A stretch of 14,272 nucleotides of DNA from Candidatus Moanibacter sp. Its GTDB lineage: Bacteria > Verrucomicrobiota > Verrucomicrobiia > Opitutales > UBA2987. The notes beneath the pieces were generated by a model that searched no databases, was not told where the DNA came from, and worked only from the letters and a program-made list of their open reading frames with translations. Below are positions 1 to 14,272 of this stretch, in pieces. The stretch lies in contig CBDCEW010000011.1 of assembly GCA_965215885.1 (NCBI GenBank), positions 1-14,272 of the forward strand. The letters run 5' to 3'. A program made the translations under genes and the position numbers. The stretch's first letter is position 1, and each line of letters begins with the position of its first letter.

Positions 1-171
1 CGCATGGGCGTCCAGATCCTTCTCGATCGCCTCGATGATTTGCGCCGCGAACCCGGCCAATTCTTCAACTTCATCCAGAAAATCACGGAAATCCGTGTCT
101 GGAACCGGCAGAATGAGGTTGCTAAGGGGCGTCTTATCGCTTTTGTTCTCCTCTGTCGCACATGTTGGCAT
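1..171 (-). CDS. 5' part of a CDS running off the left edge; possibly a DDE transposase (IS5/ISNCY-like)
   Basis: Not in the ORF track. Minus strand reads GAAAGGAG-ttaaac-ATG (strong SD, ATG at 171), then 57 open codons MPTCATEENKSDKTPLSNLILPVPDTDFRDFLDEVEELAGFAAQIIEAIEKDLDAHA to the edge. The transposase call rests on remembered resemblance of this N-terminus and the IS-end-like sequence near 316. Confidence 0.5.
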   Translation of the reverse strand, partial: MPTCATEENKSDKTPLSNLILPVPDTDFRDFLDEVEELAGFAAQIIEAIEKDLDAHA

Positions 172-262
172 GTTTAACTCCTTTCTTAATCTTAGGTTGT
201 TAAACACTAGCATGTTGCGACACTTTTTATCAAGCCAAAAAATGATTTTTCTCAAGTTTTTC

Positions 263-289
263 TTGCGCCTTTTGCGCCTCTTTGCGGCC
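263..289. repeat. Short 9-nt tandem repeat (ttgcgcctt ttgcgcctc tttgcggcc)
   Basis: Three imperfect units visible directly. Confidence 0.55.
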
Positions 290-296
290 AATCAGT

Positions 297-6506: not shown

Positions 6507-7685
6507 CTACAATACCTTGATCCTGCGCAGAGAAACCAGTGACACCAAACCAGCCCCAAAAAACACACTTCCAGCCACAATAAATGCCTGCTGAAGCGAG
6601 TATACATCCGCCGTCCATCCGATGAATGGGCCCACGATTGAAAAGGCGACACGCCCCATCATATTCGCAACCGATAGTACGGTTGCCCGTCTATCTGACG
6701 TCACGAGACGATTCAGGTAGTTCCTGACAACGGGCCCGTTGATTCCCCGCACATAATAGAAGATGAGGAAAATTGGCATGGCCCAGAGAGAGCGAAAGAA
6801 AGCCAGAAGAAGATATCCAATCAGGACGAGGAATATGAGAGAGATAAGGGTGCGTCTTCGACCGAGATATGCTTCCACTCGATAGGCCAACAGAGAGAAG
6901 ATCCCAACTGAGAAATTCAGGATTGCCCACACGATCCCGAAAAAACTGAGTGGGAGTTCGACCATTTTCAAATAGGGCTGAACGAGCCAAACCATGGTCA
7001 AGGTCGAAGCGGAGACAAAAGCCGAATAAAGAATCAGCCATTTTATTTCGCGATTATCGTGCAGCGCATAGCGCACGATCTCAAGTATTCCGGCGAAACT
7101 GCCACGACTGGATTGAAAGCGCTTCCGGCTCGGCTCGGTCAGACTGAGAGCAAGGGGGATCGCGAAAAAGATGACTGCCGCTTCAACATAGATCGGCGTA
7201 CGCAGACTCACCGTCGCAAGAAATCCTCCCAGGATACCCGCGACACCCTCCGAGACATTTCCCACCGACTGCATTCGCCCTTCCATTTTCTGGTAATCGC
7301 CTTCGCGATTCACCTCGAGTAGGGAATCATAGAGAAGCGCCGAATCTGTTCCGGAAATGAAACTGGCGCCCAACCCGAGGATTAACTCAGCAGCCAGAAA
7401 GGTCCAGAAACCGTGGGCGAGTGCATAAGTGACAAATCCGAAAAAGGCCAATGTCGCTCCGACGACCAGCGAATTCCTTCTCCCGATAACATCTGCATAG
7501 TATCCCGACGGCACTTCCAGCACGATCACCGCAATCGAGAAAACGGCCTGTAAAACCATGATGTCCGTTAGGCTGAGACCGTTCTCTTCGAAAAAGAGCA
7601 CAATGATCGGCATAACGAGCAGAAACCAGCGAAGCCCTACGATCGCATAAAGCTTCCAGAAATTGGACTGAATCGACGCTTTCAT
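6507..7685 (-). CDS. Major facilitator superfamily transporter, 392 aa
   Basis: About 12 hydrophobic segments, EVPSGYYADVIGRR (motif A variant), GTDSALLYDSL, RATVLS. Start placed at ATG 7685 (MKASIQSNF) because the extension to 7781 lies in repeat unit 1. Confidence 0.92.
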   Translation of the reverse strand: MKASIQSNFWKLYAIVGLRWFLLVMPIIVLFFEENGLSLTDIMVLQAVFSIAVIVLEVPSGYYADVIGRRNSLVVGATLAFFGFVTYALAHGFWTFLAAELILGLGASFISGTDSALLYDSLLEVNREGDYQKMEGRMQSVGNVSEGVAGILGGFLATVSLRTPIYVEAAVIFFAIPLALSLTEPSRKRFQSSRGSFAGILEIVRYALHDNREIKWLILYSAFVSASTLTMVWLVQPYLKMVELPLSFFGIVWAILNFSVGIFSLLAYRVEAYLGRRRTLISLIFLVLIGYLLLAFFRSLWAMPIFLIFYYVRGINGPVVRNYLNRLVTSDRRATVLSVANMMGRVAFSIVGPFIGWTADVYSLQQAFIVAGSVFFGAGLVSLVSLRRIKVL

Positions 7686-7735
7686 CACGGATGGGCCAAG
7701 AAAAGGCCGGGATACTGGAAAACGCAAATTGATAG

Positions 7736-7832
7736 CCCGCTTTTCCTGGCCGGCGAGCTCCGCCGGAGGGCAGAGTGTCAAAATGGACGTTTTGTCGTGA
7801 CACTGTTCTCGGAAATCTGTGAGAAAAGCGGG
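7736..7832. mobile_element. MITE-like unit 1 (97 bp)
   Basis: Perfect 10-bp terminal IR CCCGCTTTTC / GAAAAGCGGG. Flanked by ATAG (7732-7735) and CTAG (7833-7836). Confidence 0.7.
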
Positions 7833-7836
7833 CTAG

Positions 7837-8010
7837 CCCGAACATTTCACAAACCATCTGCTGCGACTGCGGATCTCACTGCGCCTCAAAGCCTTCCCTT
7901 GCCCGGCGACCTCAGAGGGTTTCAACACGCTGTCACCCGCCGGACTGCGAAAAGGCCTTGATCCGCAGCAAGCTACGCATTCTCGCTACGATGTGTGTGA
8001 AATGTCCGGG
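7837..8010. mobile_element. MITE-like unit 2 (174 bp)
   Basis: Terminal IR CCCGAACATTTCACA / TGTGAAATGTCCGGG (14/15), CTAG on both sides. Inner pairings CTGCGGATC/GATCCGCAG and CCGGCG/CGCCGG. Confidence 0.85.
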
Positions 8011-8014
8011 CTAG

Positions 8015-8092
8015 TCCCGGCGATCCGGGATCGGACTTTATGCCTCTTTCGAAGGAATTATTTGGTTTAATTCCGATCCCGGCCCGCCGGGA
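8015..8092. mobile_element. MITE-like unit 3 (78 bp)
   Basis: Terminal IR TCCCGGCGATCCGGGATCGGA / TCCGATCCCGGCCCGCCGGGA (19/21). CTAG at 8011-8014 and 8093-8096. Confidence 0.82.
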
Positions 8093-8096
8093 CTAG

Positions 8097-8272
8097 AATC
8101 AAGAAAATGAACCTGAGATTTGTGGGAAGGCGTAAGAGTTGTTGCGCAGCGGCTTCCCTATGGGCCATTTTGGCACGATCACCCTACGCGCGATATTGTT
8201 TCATCATCAGATTTGTATTCGAGTAAAGAATGGATATGACAATATGGATCAAATCTCAGGTTCATTTTCTTT
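8097..8272. mobile_element. MITE-like unit 4 (about 176 bp)
   Basis: Perfect 22-bp IR AAGAAAATGAACCTGAGATTTG (8101-8122) / CAAATCTCAGGTTCATTTTCTT (8250-8271). CTAG on the left, CAAG (8273-8276) on the right. The outermost bases are asymmetric. Confidence 0.75.
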
Positions 8273-8276
8273 CAAG

Positions 8277-8368
8277 GAATCTGTCGGTCACATCTGGGTC
8301 GGAATGTCGAGCTGTCATCTTGAAACATACACTACGGACGTTTTAGGAACACTTAGTCCGACAGACTC
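8277..8368. mobile_element. MITE-like unit 5 (92 bp)
   Basis: Terminal IR GAATCTGTCGGTC / GTCCGACAGACTC (11/13). CTAG at 8369-8372. Confidence 0.7.
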
Positions 8369-8371
8369 CTA

Positions 8372-10780
8372 GTGACGACATCAAAATTCAGGATCGCCCT
8401 CCTTTGCGGAGGCCCCTCTCTTGAGCGAGGAATATCTCTCAACTCGGCTCGCTGCGTCTGTGATCACCTACACACCGACACGCTCGAAATCGTCCCGATC
8501 TATTTCGACAGGAGGCTTAGGACTTACGAGATTTCGCGGGGGCAGCTTTATTCAAACACACCATCGGACTTCGATTTCAAGATCGACGCAGCGAAGCGAC
8601 TCAGTCGATCCAGCCTCGAATCGGTGCTGCGGAAAGTCGATCTGGTCTTTCCCTTAATCCACGGAAAGTTTGGCGAAGGCGGCGAAGTTCAGAGCTGGCT
8701 TGAAAGGCTCTCTATCCCATATGTCGGACCCACCTCAACCGCATGTCGTCGTTGTTTCGATAAATACAAGGCCAGGGCGTTTTTGAATTCTCACGGTTAC
8801 CATACCGTCCCAACACTTCTAATTCGGAAAAGCCGGCCGAACTGGAGAGCCGCCGTCGATCGATTCTTCGAAACACAAAAACTGTCACGCGCGATCGTAA
8901 AACCATCACAGGGTGGCTCGAGCATTGCGGTGCATTCCGTTTCGAGCGTGGCGCAAGCCTGCCATAAGATCGAAGAGATATTTTTGCAAAGGATCGACGA
9001 CAGAATCGTCGTGGAACCCTTTTCGCACGGTAGAGAATTTACTGTTATTGTGCTGGAGAACACCCGTTCAAATCCCGTGGCCCTCGTTCCTTGCGAGATC
9101 GAATTGGGAGACCGGGGTGACGCCATATTCGATTATCGCCGAAAGTACCTCCCAACCCGTCAGGTTACCTATCACTGCCCTCCGCAATTCGAAGACGAGG
9201 TCGTCGAGCGAATTCAACTGGAGGCCGAGAGGCTCTATTCACTCATCGGATTGCGGGACTTCACGCGATTGGATGGTTGGCTTTTGCCCGATGGAAAAAT
9301 CTGGTTTTCCGACATAAACACCATCAGTGGAATGGACCAGAACAGCTTTCTTTTTATTCAGGCTGCCCGCATGGGGATGAGCCACAGGGATGTTCTGCAG
9401 ATCATCGTAAGAAATGCTTGCCGTCGTTTCGGCGCGCAGTTTCCCGATGAGCCGATTTCTCCGGACAAAGGAAAGCTTGAGGTTCAGGTTCTGTTTGGGG
9501 GGAAAACCGCTGAGAGACAGGTCTCGATGATGAGTGGCACAAACGTTTGGCTCAAGCTGCGCCGTTCAGAATTCTACGATCCCAAACCTTTTCTTCTGGA
9601 ATCGGACTCCCGTGTTTGGCAACTACCCTACTCCTATACCCTGAACCATACAGTCGAGGAAGTGCTGGAGATGTGCCGCAATGCTGAATCTGTAGAGGCC
9701 CGTCTCGTGTCCTACCGAAAGCGCTTCCACCGGAAAATGCTGCAAGAGAGAGCTAAATACCGGGGCGACACGGACCGCCCGAAGTCGATGGAACTGGAAA
9801 AATTCATCGAAAGCGCCTCCTTCGTCTTCATCGCACTTCACGGAGGATTTGGAGAAAACGGAGGTTTGCAGAGCCTTCTCGAGTCGAAGGGGGTGCCGTT
9901 CAACGGATCCGGCTCCAAGACATCAAGACTGTGTATGAATAAGCTGGAGACGAGCCGGTCGATATCTCACTTCACGGCGGACGGTATACTCACCGCGAAG
10001 AAAACCTCCGCTCGAATCAGAGATATCGAACGTCTCAACTCACGTGCATTGGATCGATATTGGGACTCTCTCGTTGCCGAGCTTTCTACCGAACGGATCA
10101 TAGTAAAACCGATCGACGACGGCTGCTCTTCCGGCATCGCAGCGCTTCATGATGCCGGCGATCTCAAGCGCTATATTGCTCATGCCGCCGAAATAGAATC
10201 ACACATACCATCCGGAACCCTGACAGGTCAGGAAGAGATCGTCGAAATGCCAAGCGAGCGAATGGATGAGATTCTGTTCGAGGAGTTTATTGAAACGGAC
10301 CGTGTCGCTATTACCGATCAATCTCTTGATTGGGATTCGAAAGGTGGATGGGTAGAAATCACCGTTGGAGTGCTCGAGGACGAGGCCGGCCTTAAATCGC
10401 TCTCGCCCAGCATCACCGTTGTGGAAGGTTCTCTTCTGAGTCTTGAGGAGAAATTCCAGGGAGGTACAGGTGTCAACATCACCCCGCCCCCCACCGCCCG
10501 CGTGCCTCCCGAAACAGTAGAGGCCGTAAAGACCCGCATCGAGAAAGTCGCAACCGCGTTGAAAATCAGGGGCTATGCTCGCATCGATGCGTTCATGCAC
10601 ATCGAAACAGGAGAGATTATCGTTATCGAGGCAAATACTATCCCCGGATTGACACCGTCGACAGTAATTTTCCAGCAGGCTCTCGCGGAAGATCCACCCC
10701 TCTATCCTACCGCATTCCTCGAAAGAATCACGCAACAGGGCATGAAGAGAGCAGCAAAGAGCAAAGAGTGCCCACCCTAA
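8372..10780 (+). CDS. ddl: D-alanine--D-alanine ligase family protein with two tandem ATP-grasp ligase modules, 802 aa
   Basis: Module 1: GGPSLERGISLNS, IHGKFGEGG, DK, KPSQGGSS, REFTV, RLD, DINTISG. Module 2: GGKTAERQVSMMSG, LHGGFGENG, MNK, KPIDDGCSSG, EITVG, RID, EANTIPG. GTG start with no obvious SD. Confidence 0.9.
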   Translation: MTTSKFRIALLCGGPSLERGISLNSARCVCDHLHTDTLEIVPIYFDRRLRTYEISRGQLYSNTPSDFDFKIDAAKRLSRSSLESVLRKVDLVFPLIHGKFGEGGEVQSWLERLSIPYVGPTSTACRRCFDKYKARAFLNSHGYHTVPTLLIRKSRPNWRAAVDRFFETQKLSRAIVKPSQGGSSIAVHSVSSVAQACHKIEEIFLQRIDDRIVVEPFSHGREFTVIVLENTRSNPVALVPCEIELGDRGDAIFDYRRKYLPTRQVTYHCPPQFEDEVVERIQLEAERLYSLIGLRDFTRLDGWLLPDGKIWFSDINTISGMDQNSFLFIQAARMGMSHRDVLQIIVRNACRRFGAQFPDEPISPDKGKLEVQVLFGGKTAERQVSMMSGTNVWLKLRRSEFYDPKPFLLESDSRVWQLPYSYTLNHTVEEVLEMCRNAESVEARLVSYRKRFHRKMLQERAKYRGDTDRPKSMELEKFIESASFVFIALHGGFGENGGLQSLLESKGVPFNGSGSKTSRLCMNKLETSRSISHFTADGILTAKKTSARIRDIERLNSRALDRYWDSLVAELSTERIIVKPIDDGCSSGIAALHDAGDLKRYIAHAAEIESHIPSGTLTGQEEIVEMPSERMDEILFEEFIETDRVAITDQSLDWDSKGGWVEITVGVLEDEAGLKSLSPSITVVEGSLLSLEEKFQGGTGVNITPPPTARVPPETVEAVKTRIEKVATALKIRGYARIDAFMHIETGEIIVIEANTIPGLTPSTVIFQQALAEDPPLYPTAFLERITQQGMKRAAKSKECPP

Positions 10781-13437: not shown

Positions 13438-14272
13438 GTGAAGAAGAAACTACTGTCAGATCATCATCCAATTCTCAAACATGTAATCATTTTCGTGGCG
13501 TTGCTGTTCTTCGCAACTTCGCCTGTCTTTGCGAAAAAAGACAAGGATAAGGATAAGGACGGCGAGCAGGGGAGCCGAAATCTGAGGATCGTAGCCGCGG
13601 AGCCCGACCTCGAAGCGGGGACGATTCTCATCACCGGCTTTAATTTCTCCACGGGTTCTTCTTTTGATGGGGTGGTGGAGCTCTTCTTCCCGTCGGATGC
13701 GGAGGAGGGGCCTGCTGAGCTCACGGTCATATCATTCGATCCGGACGTGCCCCAGATAATCTTTGCCGGGCCGCTACCCGGAGGCATAGAGGATTTCCCC
13801 GGTACCTACGTTTTGCAAGTGCGCAGAGAGGACGGCTCTGGCGATAAAGCAAAGGCAAAGATAAAGACGGGCATTCGCCCGGCAGTGCCGATGACATTGA
13901 TGTGACCTTCGGCGCGGTAGGGCCATCGGGCGCCACCGGCCCCCAGGCCGACCAGGGGCCGCAAGGCAAGATCGGACCACAGGGCGACCCGGGTGCGCAA
14001 GGTGCACAGGGCAAGATCGGTTCACAGGGCGACCCGGGCGCACAAGGCGTTCAGGGCAAGATCGGGCCGCAGGGTGTTCAAGGCAAGATCGGACCACAGG
14101 GTGTCCGTCCGGAGGGGCCTTCGGGACCCGGAGGGCCCACCGGACCTTCAGGCGACCAGGGTGACCCAGGTGAGCAAGGAGTCCAGGGCAAGATCGGACC
14201 TCAGGGTCCGCAGGGTAAGCTCGGGTCGCAAGGTGTCCAAGGCAAGCTCGGGCCGCAGGGTGACCCGGGTGC
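13438..14272 (+). pseudogene. Secreted collagen triple-helix repeat protein with an apparent frameshift near 13849; runs off the right edge
   Basis: Signal peptide (MKKK...IIFVALLFFATSPVFA) and a beta-rich domain (ILITGFNF...PGTYVLQV). A second frame continues KGKDKDGHSPGSADDIDVTF, then about 39 G-X-Y triplets from 13911 to the edge. Could be a sequencing error rather than a true pseudogene. Confidence 0.8.
13911..14272 (+). repeat. Collagen G-X-Y coding repeat with recurring QGK(I/L)GPQG units
   Basis: GAV GPS GAT GPQ ADQ GPQ GKI GPQ GDP GAQ GAQ GKI GSQ...; CA(A/G)GG(C/T)AAG(A/C)TCGG occurs 7 times. Confidence 0.95.

Follow-up and report, generated by a model that had tools for sequence, protein, structure and literature searches.

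Among described systems, MITEPsy1 of Pseudomonas syringae, a single short hairpin of 100 nt related to ISPsy2, is non-coding and has inverted repeats at its termini; in the available part of its description it inserts behind CTAG or YTAA, duplicates this target and at one site stands in tandem with an IS (PMC3189936). For the IS1182 and IS1380 families, the accessible portion of PMC3281130 gives ISPse1 (IS1182 family) as 1653 bp with IR 16/16 and DR 4, and IS1247 (IS1380 family) as 1672 bp with IR 16/13 and DR 5; IS1272, also of the IS1182 family, is described in the available text as targeting hairpins with no duplication (PMC5678879, PMC4923244). In TIME-bounded composites, as far as the partial texts of PMC4133298 and PMC13367494 go, a segment lies between two miniature elements of the same family and is carried along with them as one composite. 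Within the literature searched, which excluded ISfinder and subscription journals, three-hairpin MITEs of IS1182 or IS1380 type were nowhere found described, and by term search the words IS1182, IS1380, nested and tandem were all absent from the available text of a MITE review (PMC10969869).

The window analysed here, the whole 14,272-nucleotide stretch from Candidatus Moanibacter sp., carries a 641-nt stack of hairpins that occupies nearly all of the spacer between two divergent genes. We read this stack as three gene-less MITEs accumulated at one CTAG and not as a cassette array (probability about 0.85). Like MITEPsy1, its members are short and non-coding with terminal inverted repeats, but their ends are of IS1182 or IS1380 type and two of the three are three-hairpin elements. 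The largest resembles the IS1182 family through full-length relatives of 1613-1720 bp with ~15-bp inverted repeats, 4-bp CTAG flanks and an IS1182 transposase; the stack element itself lacks a transposase and, in contrast to IS1272, shows a 4-bp duplication. The IS1380-type elements have 4-bp CTAG flanks and not the 5 bp given for IS1247, and one of them (U1) fits the family less closely and belongs to a derivative with three hairpins. Compared with the Tn3 ends and gene cargo of the TIME composites, the three-hairpin elements carry a non-coding hairpin of 165-176 bp in a total of ~300-350 bp. The features of the locus are as follows.

6507..7688, minus strand: MFS transporter gene (MFS_1 match, E 1e-35), divergent, starting ~45 bp left of the stack
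7732..7735, plus strand: ATAG, likely inner junction of an IS1380-type three-hairpin MITE (4-mer tally of U1-type arms)
7736..7832, plus strand: U1, 97-bp right arm of that MITE type (arm survey and end comparison)
7833..7836, plus strand: CTAG, left target copy presumably duplicated by U2
7837..8010, plus strand: U2, 174-bp IS1380-type MITE (copies; ends compared with a full IS1380)
8011..8014, plus strand: CTAG common to U2 (right) and the composite (left)
8015..8368, plus strand: U3-U4-U5, 354-bp three-hairpin MITE with IS1182-type outer ends (copies, flanks, ends)
8015..8030, no strand: 16-bp palindrome standing for the first 7 bp of an IS1182-type end
8077..8092, no strand: 16-bp palindrome again, here in place of the inner end (7 bp) of arm 1
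8093..8096, plus strand: inner CTAG of the composite, in other copies hit by U2 or an ISNCY-like element (C61, C66, C102)
8097..8272, plus strand: U4, the hairpin in the middle, containing an inverted repeat of 22 bp; no free CTAG-bounded copy seen
8273..8276, plus strand: CAAG, fixed inner junction and not a fresh target copy (U4 right-end tally)
8277..8368, plus strand: U5, right arm of 92 bp whose outer end agrees with IS1182 ends at 12-13/15
8369..8372, plus strand: right CTAG, its G being the first base of the ddl GTG start
8372..10780, plus strand: D-Ala-D-Ala-ligase-like gene, two-domain, 802 aa (profile match)

The original prediction parsed the stack without remainder into five inverted-repeat units, and this parse was exact when 4-mers (ATAG at 7732; CTAG at 7833, 8011 and 8093; CAAG at 8273; CTAG at 8369) and unit lengths (97, 174, 78, 176 and 92 bp for U1 to U5) were re-checked. 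Terminal complementarities of 10/10, 14/15, 19/21, 22/22 and 11/13 were likewise reproduced, except that the 22/22 repeat of U4, although present, is offset from the unit ends (8101-8122 / 8250-8271); it starts 4 nt in from the left CTAG and stops 1 nt short of CAAG, so that U4 is asymmetric relative to its 4-mers. A single-stranded DNA fold of the 641 nt gave five distinct hairpins (z = -12.4 relative to 20 shuffles; -144 kcal/mol), and the CTAG that separates most of them is the genome's most under-represented 4-mer (ratio 0.49, 0.64 per kb). Misassembly, which had been raised as a danger to the parse, is countered by contigs from two public runs (two studies) that together carry every junction, at 7200-7847 with one difference and at 7988-8115 and 8088-8900 with none, none of them alone covering the entire stack and the runs possibly including the source sample; in such contigs, whole-element removal was seen at 0 of the 15 joints listed (of 19).

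The units are MITEs, being short, non-coding and bounded by terminal inverted repeats, with many dispersed copies at unrelated flanks. To this extent the proposal of stacked MITEs held: the units are multicopy and not single-copy, they have IS-type ends, and regeneration of CTAG fits the U1/U2 and U2/U3 junctions, but the elements number three and not five. U3-U4-U5 make up one element, which at other sites has been inserted undivided. In this genome 25 copies contain U4 and U5, 22 of them also the U3-type arm in the same order and orientation, and the left outer 4-mer was CTAG in 20 of these 22. By contrast, the right end of U4 bore CTAG in 0/33 near-full copies, 29 of which continue into U5, and in 0/12 full copies. 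The interiors of U4 and U5 co-vary (Mantel r = 0.41, p = 0.0004, n = 21); the correlations of U3 with U4 (r = 0.34, p = 0.07) and with U5 (r = 0.15, p = 0.21; both n = 12) were not significant. The composite duplicates a CTAG-type 4-bp target, as the copy at C105:112473 is flanked left and right by CTAA and a 93% identical paralogue bears a single CTAA at the empty site, the only true empty site among 22 composites tested. Copies, deletion derivatives included, are scattered genome-wide, and the layout is kept in a sister genus (G006), where we counted 74 U4 left ends and, among 40 loci examined, 19 complete copies, with copies 97-99% identical at unrelated flanks. No transposase partner was found for U4. 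In the search for a parent of the middle hairpins, exact matching against the genome collection, from which near genomes may be excluded, gave 0 in each of two scans, and 13 metagenome matches were each single, with the opposite end absent. U4 and the IS1380-type middle showed no homology to each other (best E 0.16).

U2 is a simple element with 131 full copies in the genome, 100 of them with CTAG on both sides. Where it is nested in other repeats, removing U2 together with one 4-mer restores an in-register match to undisturbed copies. At 16 such sites with at least two undisturbed copies, CTAG was present in the closest or commonest copy at 7, and at the remaining 9 the undisturbed copies mostly lacked it; in one set, 16 or more of the 18 undisturbed copies differed by 2 bases. 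Moreover, 31 U2 copies have a flank other than CTAG, and the 4-mers on the two sides are identical in just 2 of these. The mismatched flanks and CTAG-less empty sites thus fall short of proving a clean 4-bp duplication by U2, and TA duplication or junction conversion is possible instead. Stacking was no more frequent than random choice of CTAG predicts: 22 of 128 U2 copies adjoin a non-IS1380-type end, as against 16.6% expected over all CTAG sites (p = 0.81), so that no mechanism beyond target duplication is needed, and a special attraction of U2 to other element ends was discarded. Measured against CTAG outside long frames, defined by a crude gene mask, stacking was lower than expected (17% versus 31%, p = 0.0007).

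The affiliation of U1 was traced through its arm type, which occurs in an IS1380-type three-hairpin layout consisting of a 26-bp mini hairpin, a middle of 164-168 bp and a U1-type arm. The best other copy of U1 is 80% identical; its right end matches the full IS1380 end at 10/14 and its inner (left) end at 6-7/14, and end variants of intermediate type connect U1 ends to U2 ends. ATAG stands on the left of 15 of 37 U1-type arms, and all 16 arms with ATA(G/A) are preceded by a 4-mer resembling that of the intact composite, the remaining 21 by varied 4-mers; on this comparison, ATAG is probably not a degenerated copy of the target but a junction internal to a larger element. U1 right ends were seen to adjoin U3-type ends at C18, C79, C80, C88 and C33. 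Our searches recovered neither a full IS element bearing exactly the end of U1 nor a clean empty site for it.

Full-length relatives identify the families. Five elements of 1613-1720 bp in other genomes of the phylum share the end type of the composite and are flanked by CTAG left and right, and all four that were scanned pass the IS1182 profile NF033551 (301-341 bits, cut-off 270). A 1567-bp IS1380 element (L109; NF033539, 253.8 bits, cut-off 180), also with CTAG on both sides, bears the end of U2, whose two ends match its left end at 12/14 and 13/14. By their ends, the composite classes as an IS1182-family derivative (U5 12-13/15; U3 8/8 behind the 16-mer) and U2 as an IS1380-family derivative. 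IS5, named originally as an example of a family that targets CTAG-type sites, was abandoned, the candidate parents being far below IS5 cut-offs and above those of IS1182 or IS1380. The genome's own multi-copy IS elements, including abundant CTAG-flanked IS1380 and ISNCY-like elements, were rejected as parents on their differing termini, and no inner inverted copies of the ends of at least 7 nt were found within 260 nt in six full IS elements from other genomes. In G006 an IS1182 3' transposase remnant ends in a 92-bp U5-type arm plus CTAG, and in the present genome an IS1380 3' remnant ends in a U2-like end. In this 90%-complete genome, cognate IS1182 and IS1380 elements with these ends were found as remnants only, none of them intact, so that mobilisation in trans by DDE transposases of the two families is something we infer.

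Copy numbers, CTAG flanks, empty sites, end matches to full IS elements and the co-inheritance of U4 and U5 were observed directly; the order of arrival is inferred. The composite would move as a whole via its outer ends, and U1 would be the right arm of an IS1380-type three-hairpin element whose left part is missing at the locus. U2, an identical copy of which exists at C97:67576 with unrelated flanks and which would for that reason be the most recent insertion, likely arrived last, into the CTAG between U1 and the composite. Stacking at one CTAG would follow because each insertion duplicates the target and offers it anew. The original idea that the stack is an ordered record of insertions was not sustained: the youngest unit lies between the others, and position therefore does not give age.

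Both termini of U3 are replaced by a 16-bp palindrome with 283 exact copies in the genome. The 8 nt after the left 16-mer match IS1182 end positions 8-15 (8/8), and 9 of 10 homologous sites without the second 16-mer hold 7 bp in its place; the replacement may have occurred after the composite had formed. As a short, very abundant hairpin in a genome with small GIY-YIG frames, the 16-mer is similar in shape to the dRS3/NTS/SRM palindromes associated with Ssn nucleases, as outlined in the available parts of PMC11893778 and PMC3733652; it differs from what those parts describe in lacking fixed flanks, in displacing 5-12 bp of other repeats and in not bracketing any of the three GIY-YIG frames, near one of which a 15-mer lies.

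Three other explanations of the locus deserve weighing. Five independent MITE insertions, one per hairpin as originally proposed, would account for the inverted ends that each hairpin possesses, and CTAG or TTAG stands to the left of some U5-type arms and of 15 of 37 U1-type arms with no visible partner, so that arms may also move singly; the composite may even have arisen once through such stacking. For this locus, however, the reading is largely refuted, and we regard it as very improbable, given the fixed order and orientation of U3-U4-U5 in two genera, the absence of a right CTAG from U4 (0/33), the co-variation of U4 with U5 and the whole-composite empty site. IS110 and IS4 elements target REPs, and both also target the repeats described here, which agrees with a REP/BIME- or NIME-like mosaic mobilised not by DDE enzymes but by an Ssn-type nuclease or a HUH transposase (RAYT). 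The genome holds ~20 RAYT-like frames besides the three GIY-YIG frames, and the U3 termini combine a tetranucleotide with the abundant short palindrome, a shape like that of dRS3/NTS in the accessible text of PMC11893778. Yet none of the 21 inspected Y1 loci lies between such ends (a U2 copy is situated 200 bp from one of them), a direct 4-bp duplication was seen, and the outer ends match termini of CTAG-flanked DDE elements. The RAYT/REP link was accordingly dropped for the units; a REP- or Ssn-like account can be held for the 16-mer only, and for the stack it is slightly less probable still.

We give the least credence to a function of the stack itself, be it as a cassette-like series of RNA or DNA hairpins or as a regulatory block exapted for the divergent genes. 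The strong fold (z = -12.4), arm lengths conserved between genera though the loops diverge, and compensatory changes in arm 1 (14 G-C versus 10 C-G; 9 T-A, 7 G-C and 6 C-G; 25 copies) speak for it, and since the stack fills the spacer up to the ddl start codon, transcription signals may lie inside. Against this, there was no Rfam match, the consensus fold holds terminal stems only, copies and deletion derivatives are scattered throughout the genome, and promoter-like sites numbered 2 as compared with 0.6 ± 0.8 in shuffles. No recombinase was found beside the stack among neighbouring frames or by profile search, as had been noted at the outset.

As three stacked MITEs, the locus follows known biology, in which a rare, duplicated 4-bp target creates new targets at an element's own ends. 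Less ordinary are the three-hairpin layout, which occurs in two IS families and persists in two genera, and the 16-bp palindrome, a replacement-type insertion whose enzyme is not known. A broader and doubtful, if possible, extension is that target-regenerating stacks serve as nurseries of mobile units, in which two unrelated IS families of this lineage would each give rise to conserved arm-hairpin-arm mini-composites with non-coding cargo that are overwritten (5-12 bp, hundreds of sites) by an undescribed ultra-short mobile palindrome and become landing pads for an IS110 bridge-RNA element; if true, a four-level parasite hierarchy would be legible at a single locus. The natural CTAG-specific IS1182 and IS1380 ends provide hundreds of insertion sites usable for target rules, and a MITE end is clearly a natural target of the IS110 element.

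At the locus itself, no DNA match was obtained in 37 of 41 genomes, and no empty allele was seen, the MFS-ddl neighbourhood in relatives not being syntenic: in G002 and G004 the two genes are on the same strand ~12 kb apart, and in G006 the MFS gene was not found with the query used. Contigs of an RNA run (X7) lie at 7483-7706 and 8292-8543 and show neither transcription nor start sites. Homologues of the MFS protein align from residue 6 of its 393-aa frame, and the ddl N-terminus, which begins at the right edge of the stack, has the same length as in the homologues of G002 and G004.

The interval 7732-8372 parses exactly, on re-reading of the sequence, into five units with the terminal repeats originally described, and folding of the stack strand gave five hairpins (z = -12.4). 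The original prediction read these as five stacked insertions of gene-less miniature transposons (MITEs). Stacking of MITEs at CTAG holds for this feature, but with three elements rather than five, a reading to which we assign a probability of about 85%: the CTAG target would be regenerated at insertion, allowing three MITEs to accumulate at one site. The features are as follows.

7732, ATAG; 7833, 8011 and 8093, CTAG; 8273, CAAG; 8369, CTAG: 4-mers joining the units
7736-7832: U1, 97 bp
7837-8010: U2, 174 bp
8015-8368: U3 (78 bp), U4 (176 bp) and U5 (92 bp), together the composite, with IS1182-type outer ends
8015-8030 and 8077-8092: 16-bp palindrome at both ends of U3
8372-10780: ddl-like gene, encoding an 802-aa protein with two D-Ala-D-Ala-ligase modules (five family members were searched and three have it)

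A divergent MFS transporter gene and the two-domain ddl-like gene lie on either side of the stack, and the G that ends the right CTAG also opens the GTG start of the latter. Every junction was found in contigs of runs from two studies, although no contig spans the whole stretch.

BLAST of each unit against the host genome (6.36 Mb, IS-rich; the window is C11:1-14272) confirmed that all five are repeats, with 40, 207, 65, 27 and 70 loci for U1 to U5 in local searches and 9, 131, 11, 12 and 39 full-length copies, respectively. CTAG flanked full-length copies on both sides in 0/9, 100/131, 9/11, 0/12 and 3/39 cases, and these unit-specific differences were the first sign that some 4-mers are not fresh target copies.

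Unit U2 alone makes up a simple MITE: one other copy is 100% identical at unrelated flanks, and 26 of 131 copies had junction-spanning matches to another repeat. Its insertion adds four bases: where U2 lies inside another repeat, deleting it with one 4-mer produced an in-register match to undisturbed copies. The four bases may represent a 4-bp duplication, or a duplicated TA plus bases owned by the element: among the 16 U2 sites with at least two undisturbed copies CTAG was present in the closest or commonest copy at 7 and mostly absent at 9, and only 2 of 31 U2 copies with a non-CTAG flank had an identical 4-mer on both sides. A search of 401 genomes from the phylum found the U2 end pattern in 13; in one of them (G220), ends matching those of U2 at 12/14 and 13/14 positions bound an element of 1567 bp that encodes an IS1380 transposase and has CTAG on either side. 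The host genome holds an IS1380 3' remnant whose end resembles that of U2, and U2 is also present in the sister genus (G006). A 175-bp look-alike in G194:C30 (L110:2066-2240) belongs to a distant family, and G224:C1 carries 137-bp IS1380-type MITEs with an end that folds back onto its own inverted copy.

U3, U4 and U5 form one element. U4 was joined to U5 in 25 copies, with a U3-type arm ahead in 22; the left outer 4-mer was CTAG in 20 of these 22, and at the right 13 of 25 copies had CTAG, 4 had CTAA, 4 were disrupted by an IS110 element and 4 differed from all of these. Among near-full U4 copies, 29/33 continued into U5 and 0/33 ended in CTAG, and the U4 22-bp repeat is displaced relative to the flanking 4-mers. 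U4 and U5 interiors co-varied (r = 0.41, p = 0.0004, n = 21), while co-variation of the U3 core with the rest fell below significance (n = 12). One copy was flanked by CTAA on each side, and its 93% paralogue had a single CTAA (1 true case in 22 tested). The sister genus contained 74 U4 left ends; 40 loci were examined, and 19 complete composites were found there, whose arms measure about 61, 176 and 92 bp. Copies with 97-99% identity lay at unrelated flanks. Shorter forms fit deletion at microhomologies. The outer end was present in 36 of those 401 genomes, and five elements of 1613-1720 bp had it at both termini with CTAG outside, all four of those scanned passing the IS1182 cut-off. Behind an IS1182 transposase remnant in G006 come a U5-type arm of 92 bp and a CTAG, roughly where the element's right end would be expected, which suggests that the IS1182 parent in this lineage may natively end in such an arm; a free U5-type arm may instead have inserted there. 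No parent was found for U4.

A second three-hairpin element accounts for U1, which is its right arm. Between outer CTAG-type sites, that element comprises a mini hairpin of 26 bp, then a middle that mostly measures 164-168 bp and contains a long inverted repeat, and finally an arm of the U1 type. This layout was seen in G006 (L170-L189), in 9 of the 12 copies listed, and in four near-full host copies with IS1380-type ends.

C41:30820
C78:79357
C99:93824
C104:50383

U1 matches the IS1380 end at 10/14 positions, making its assignment to that family the weaker one. The two MITE middles had no detectable homology, and no parent of the second was found. ATAG lay left of 15 of 37 U1-type arms, and in 16/16 ATA(G/A) cases the preceding 4-mer resembled the junction of this second element; the window copy is among these cases, so its left part was probably lost. 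In relatives MFS and ddl are not adjacent, and the site may therefore also be a rearrangement junction. IS1380-type/IS1182-type composite hybrids occur at C19:40907 and C87:74010.

The U3 palindrome stands in for 7 bp of the IS1182-type end. It had 283 exact copies versus 0-1 for 39 shuffled-arm controls; counting a related 15-mer too and allowing one mismatch raised the total to 607 sites, 261 with a known homologous palindrome-free site, and at 191 of the 261 the palindrome takes the place of 5-12 bp (mode 7). Across these roughly 600 sites the 15-16-bp palindromes overwrite parts of other repeats (up to about 66 bp) without any duplication, and the lost stretch usually has C first and G last. 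Within the order, 8 of the 121 genomes contained the palindrome (33 copies in G006, at most 10 elsewhere). The 16-mer resembles dRS3/NTS in shape (PMC11893778). The palindrome was not seen to bracket any of three small GIY-YIG frames in the host genome, two of which adjoin tRNA-like or tRNA-fragment sequence.

C36:37805-37999
C95:78583-78795
C95:84210-84413

The alternative of a hairpin-RNA cassette was not upheld: Rfam gave no match, and a consensus fold built from 25 composites, drawn from the two genera, had stems at the termini only. Arm 1 had compensatory changes, which fit symmetric DNA-level ends and RNA pairing equally well. RAYT mobilisation of the units was rejected, as none of the 21 RAYT-type loci inspected was bracketed by these ends. 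Promoter-like sites in the stack were near chance; the stack may hold some signal for the adjoining genes, because it occupies nearly all of the divergent spacer. Returning to MITE stacking, no special targeting is required. The 4065 CTAG sites in the genome comprise 268 within IS bodies, 895 at classed element ends and 2902 naive sites; 31 of 128 scored U2 copies abutted another end, 22 (17%) a non-IS1380-type end; the expected share is 16.6% when every CTAG site is counted (p = 0.81) and 31% when only sites outside long frames are. At least two double-sided junctions occurred at 15 loci, the window (three) being the longest among those listed. Judged by best identity elsewhere (100% for U2, 86% for the composite, 80% for U1), U2 appears younger than both others, and because it occupies the middle, order along the DNA is not the time series once proposed.

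Stacking itself is ordinary; closer study is merited by the recurring layout of three hairpins, the palindrome that overwrites other repeats and the site that IS110 targets. Searches of the open literature (ISfinder and subscription journals lying outside their scope) yielded no account of IS1182 or IS1380 MITEs built from three hairpins. Published work describes CTAG or YTAA duplication by MITEPsy1 (PMC3189936), 16-bp repeats and a 4-bp duplication for ISPse1 (IS1182) and a 5-bp duplication for IS1247 (IS1380; both PMC3281130), and TIMEs as composite elements with gene cargo (PMC4133298). IS1272 is reported to enter hairpins without duplication (PMC5678879, PMC4923244), in contrast to the duplication seen here.

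These repeats are themselves targets. An IS110-like element (C25:11262-12584, L024; NF033542 E 2e-34, below cut-off), with about 10 further copies and one in G006 (L164), sits five bases inside the end of the IS1182-type MITE (left junctions 9/10, right 9/11), which may be its natural bridge-RNA target; the same insertion lies upstream of ddl in G006. An IS4-family element (C28:850-2283, L022; about 36 copies) splits the 15-bp palindrome at its centre and is accompanied by a 9-bp duplication (35/36 left junctions, by eye). Window positions 1-291 are a partial copy of the host's most abundant IS (556-aa ISNCY-like transposase; >100 copies; flanks CTAG-rich, >4 bp), and 13438-14272 holds a secreted-looking frame, then a collagen-like Gly-X-Y repeat frame continuing past the window edge.
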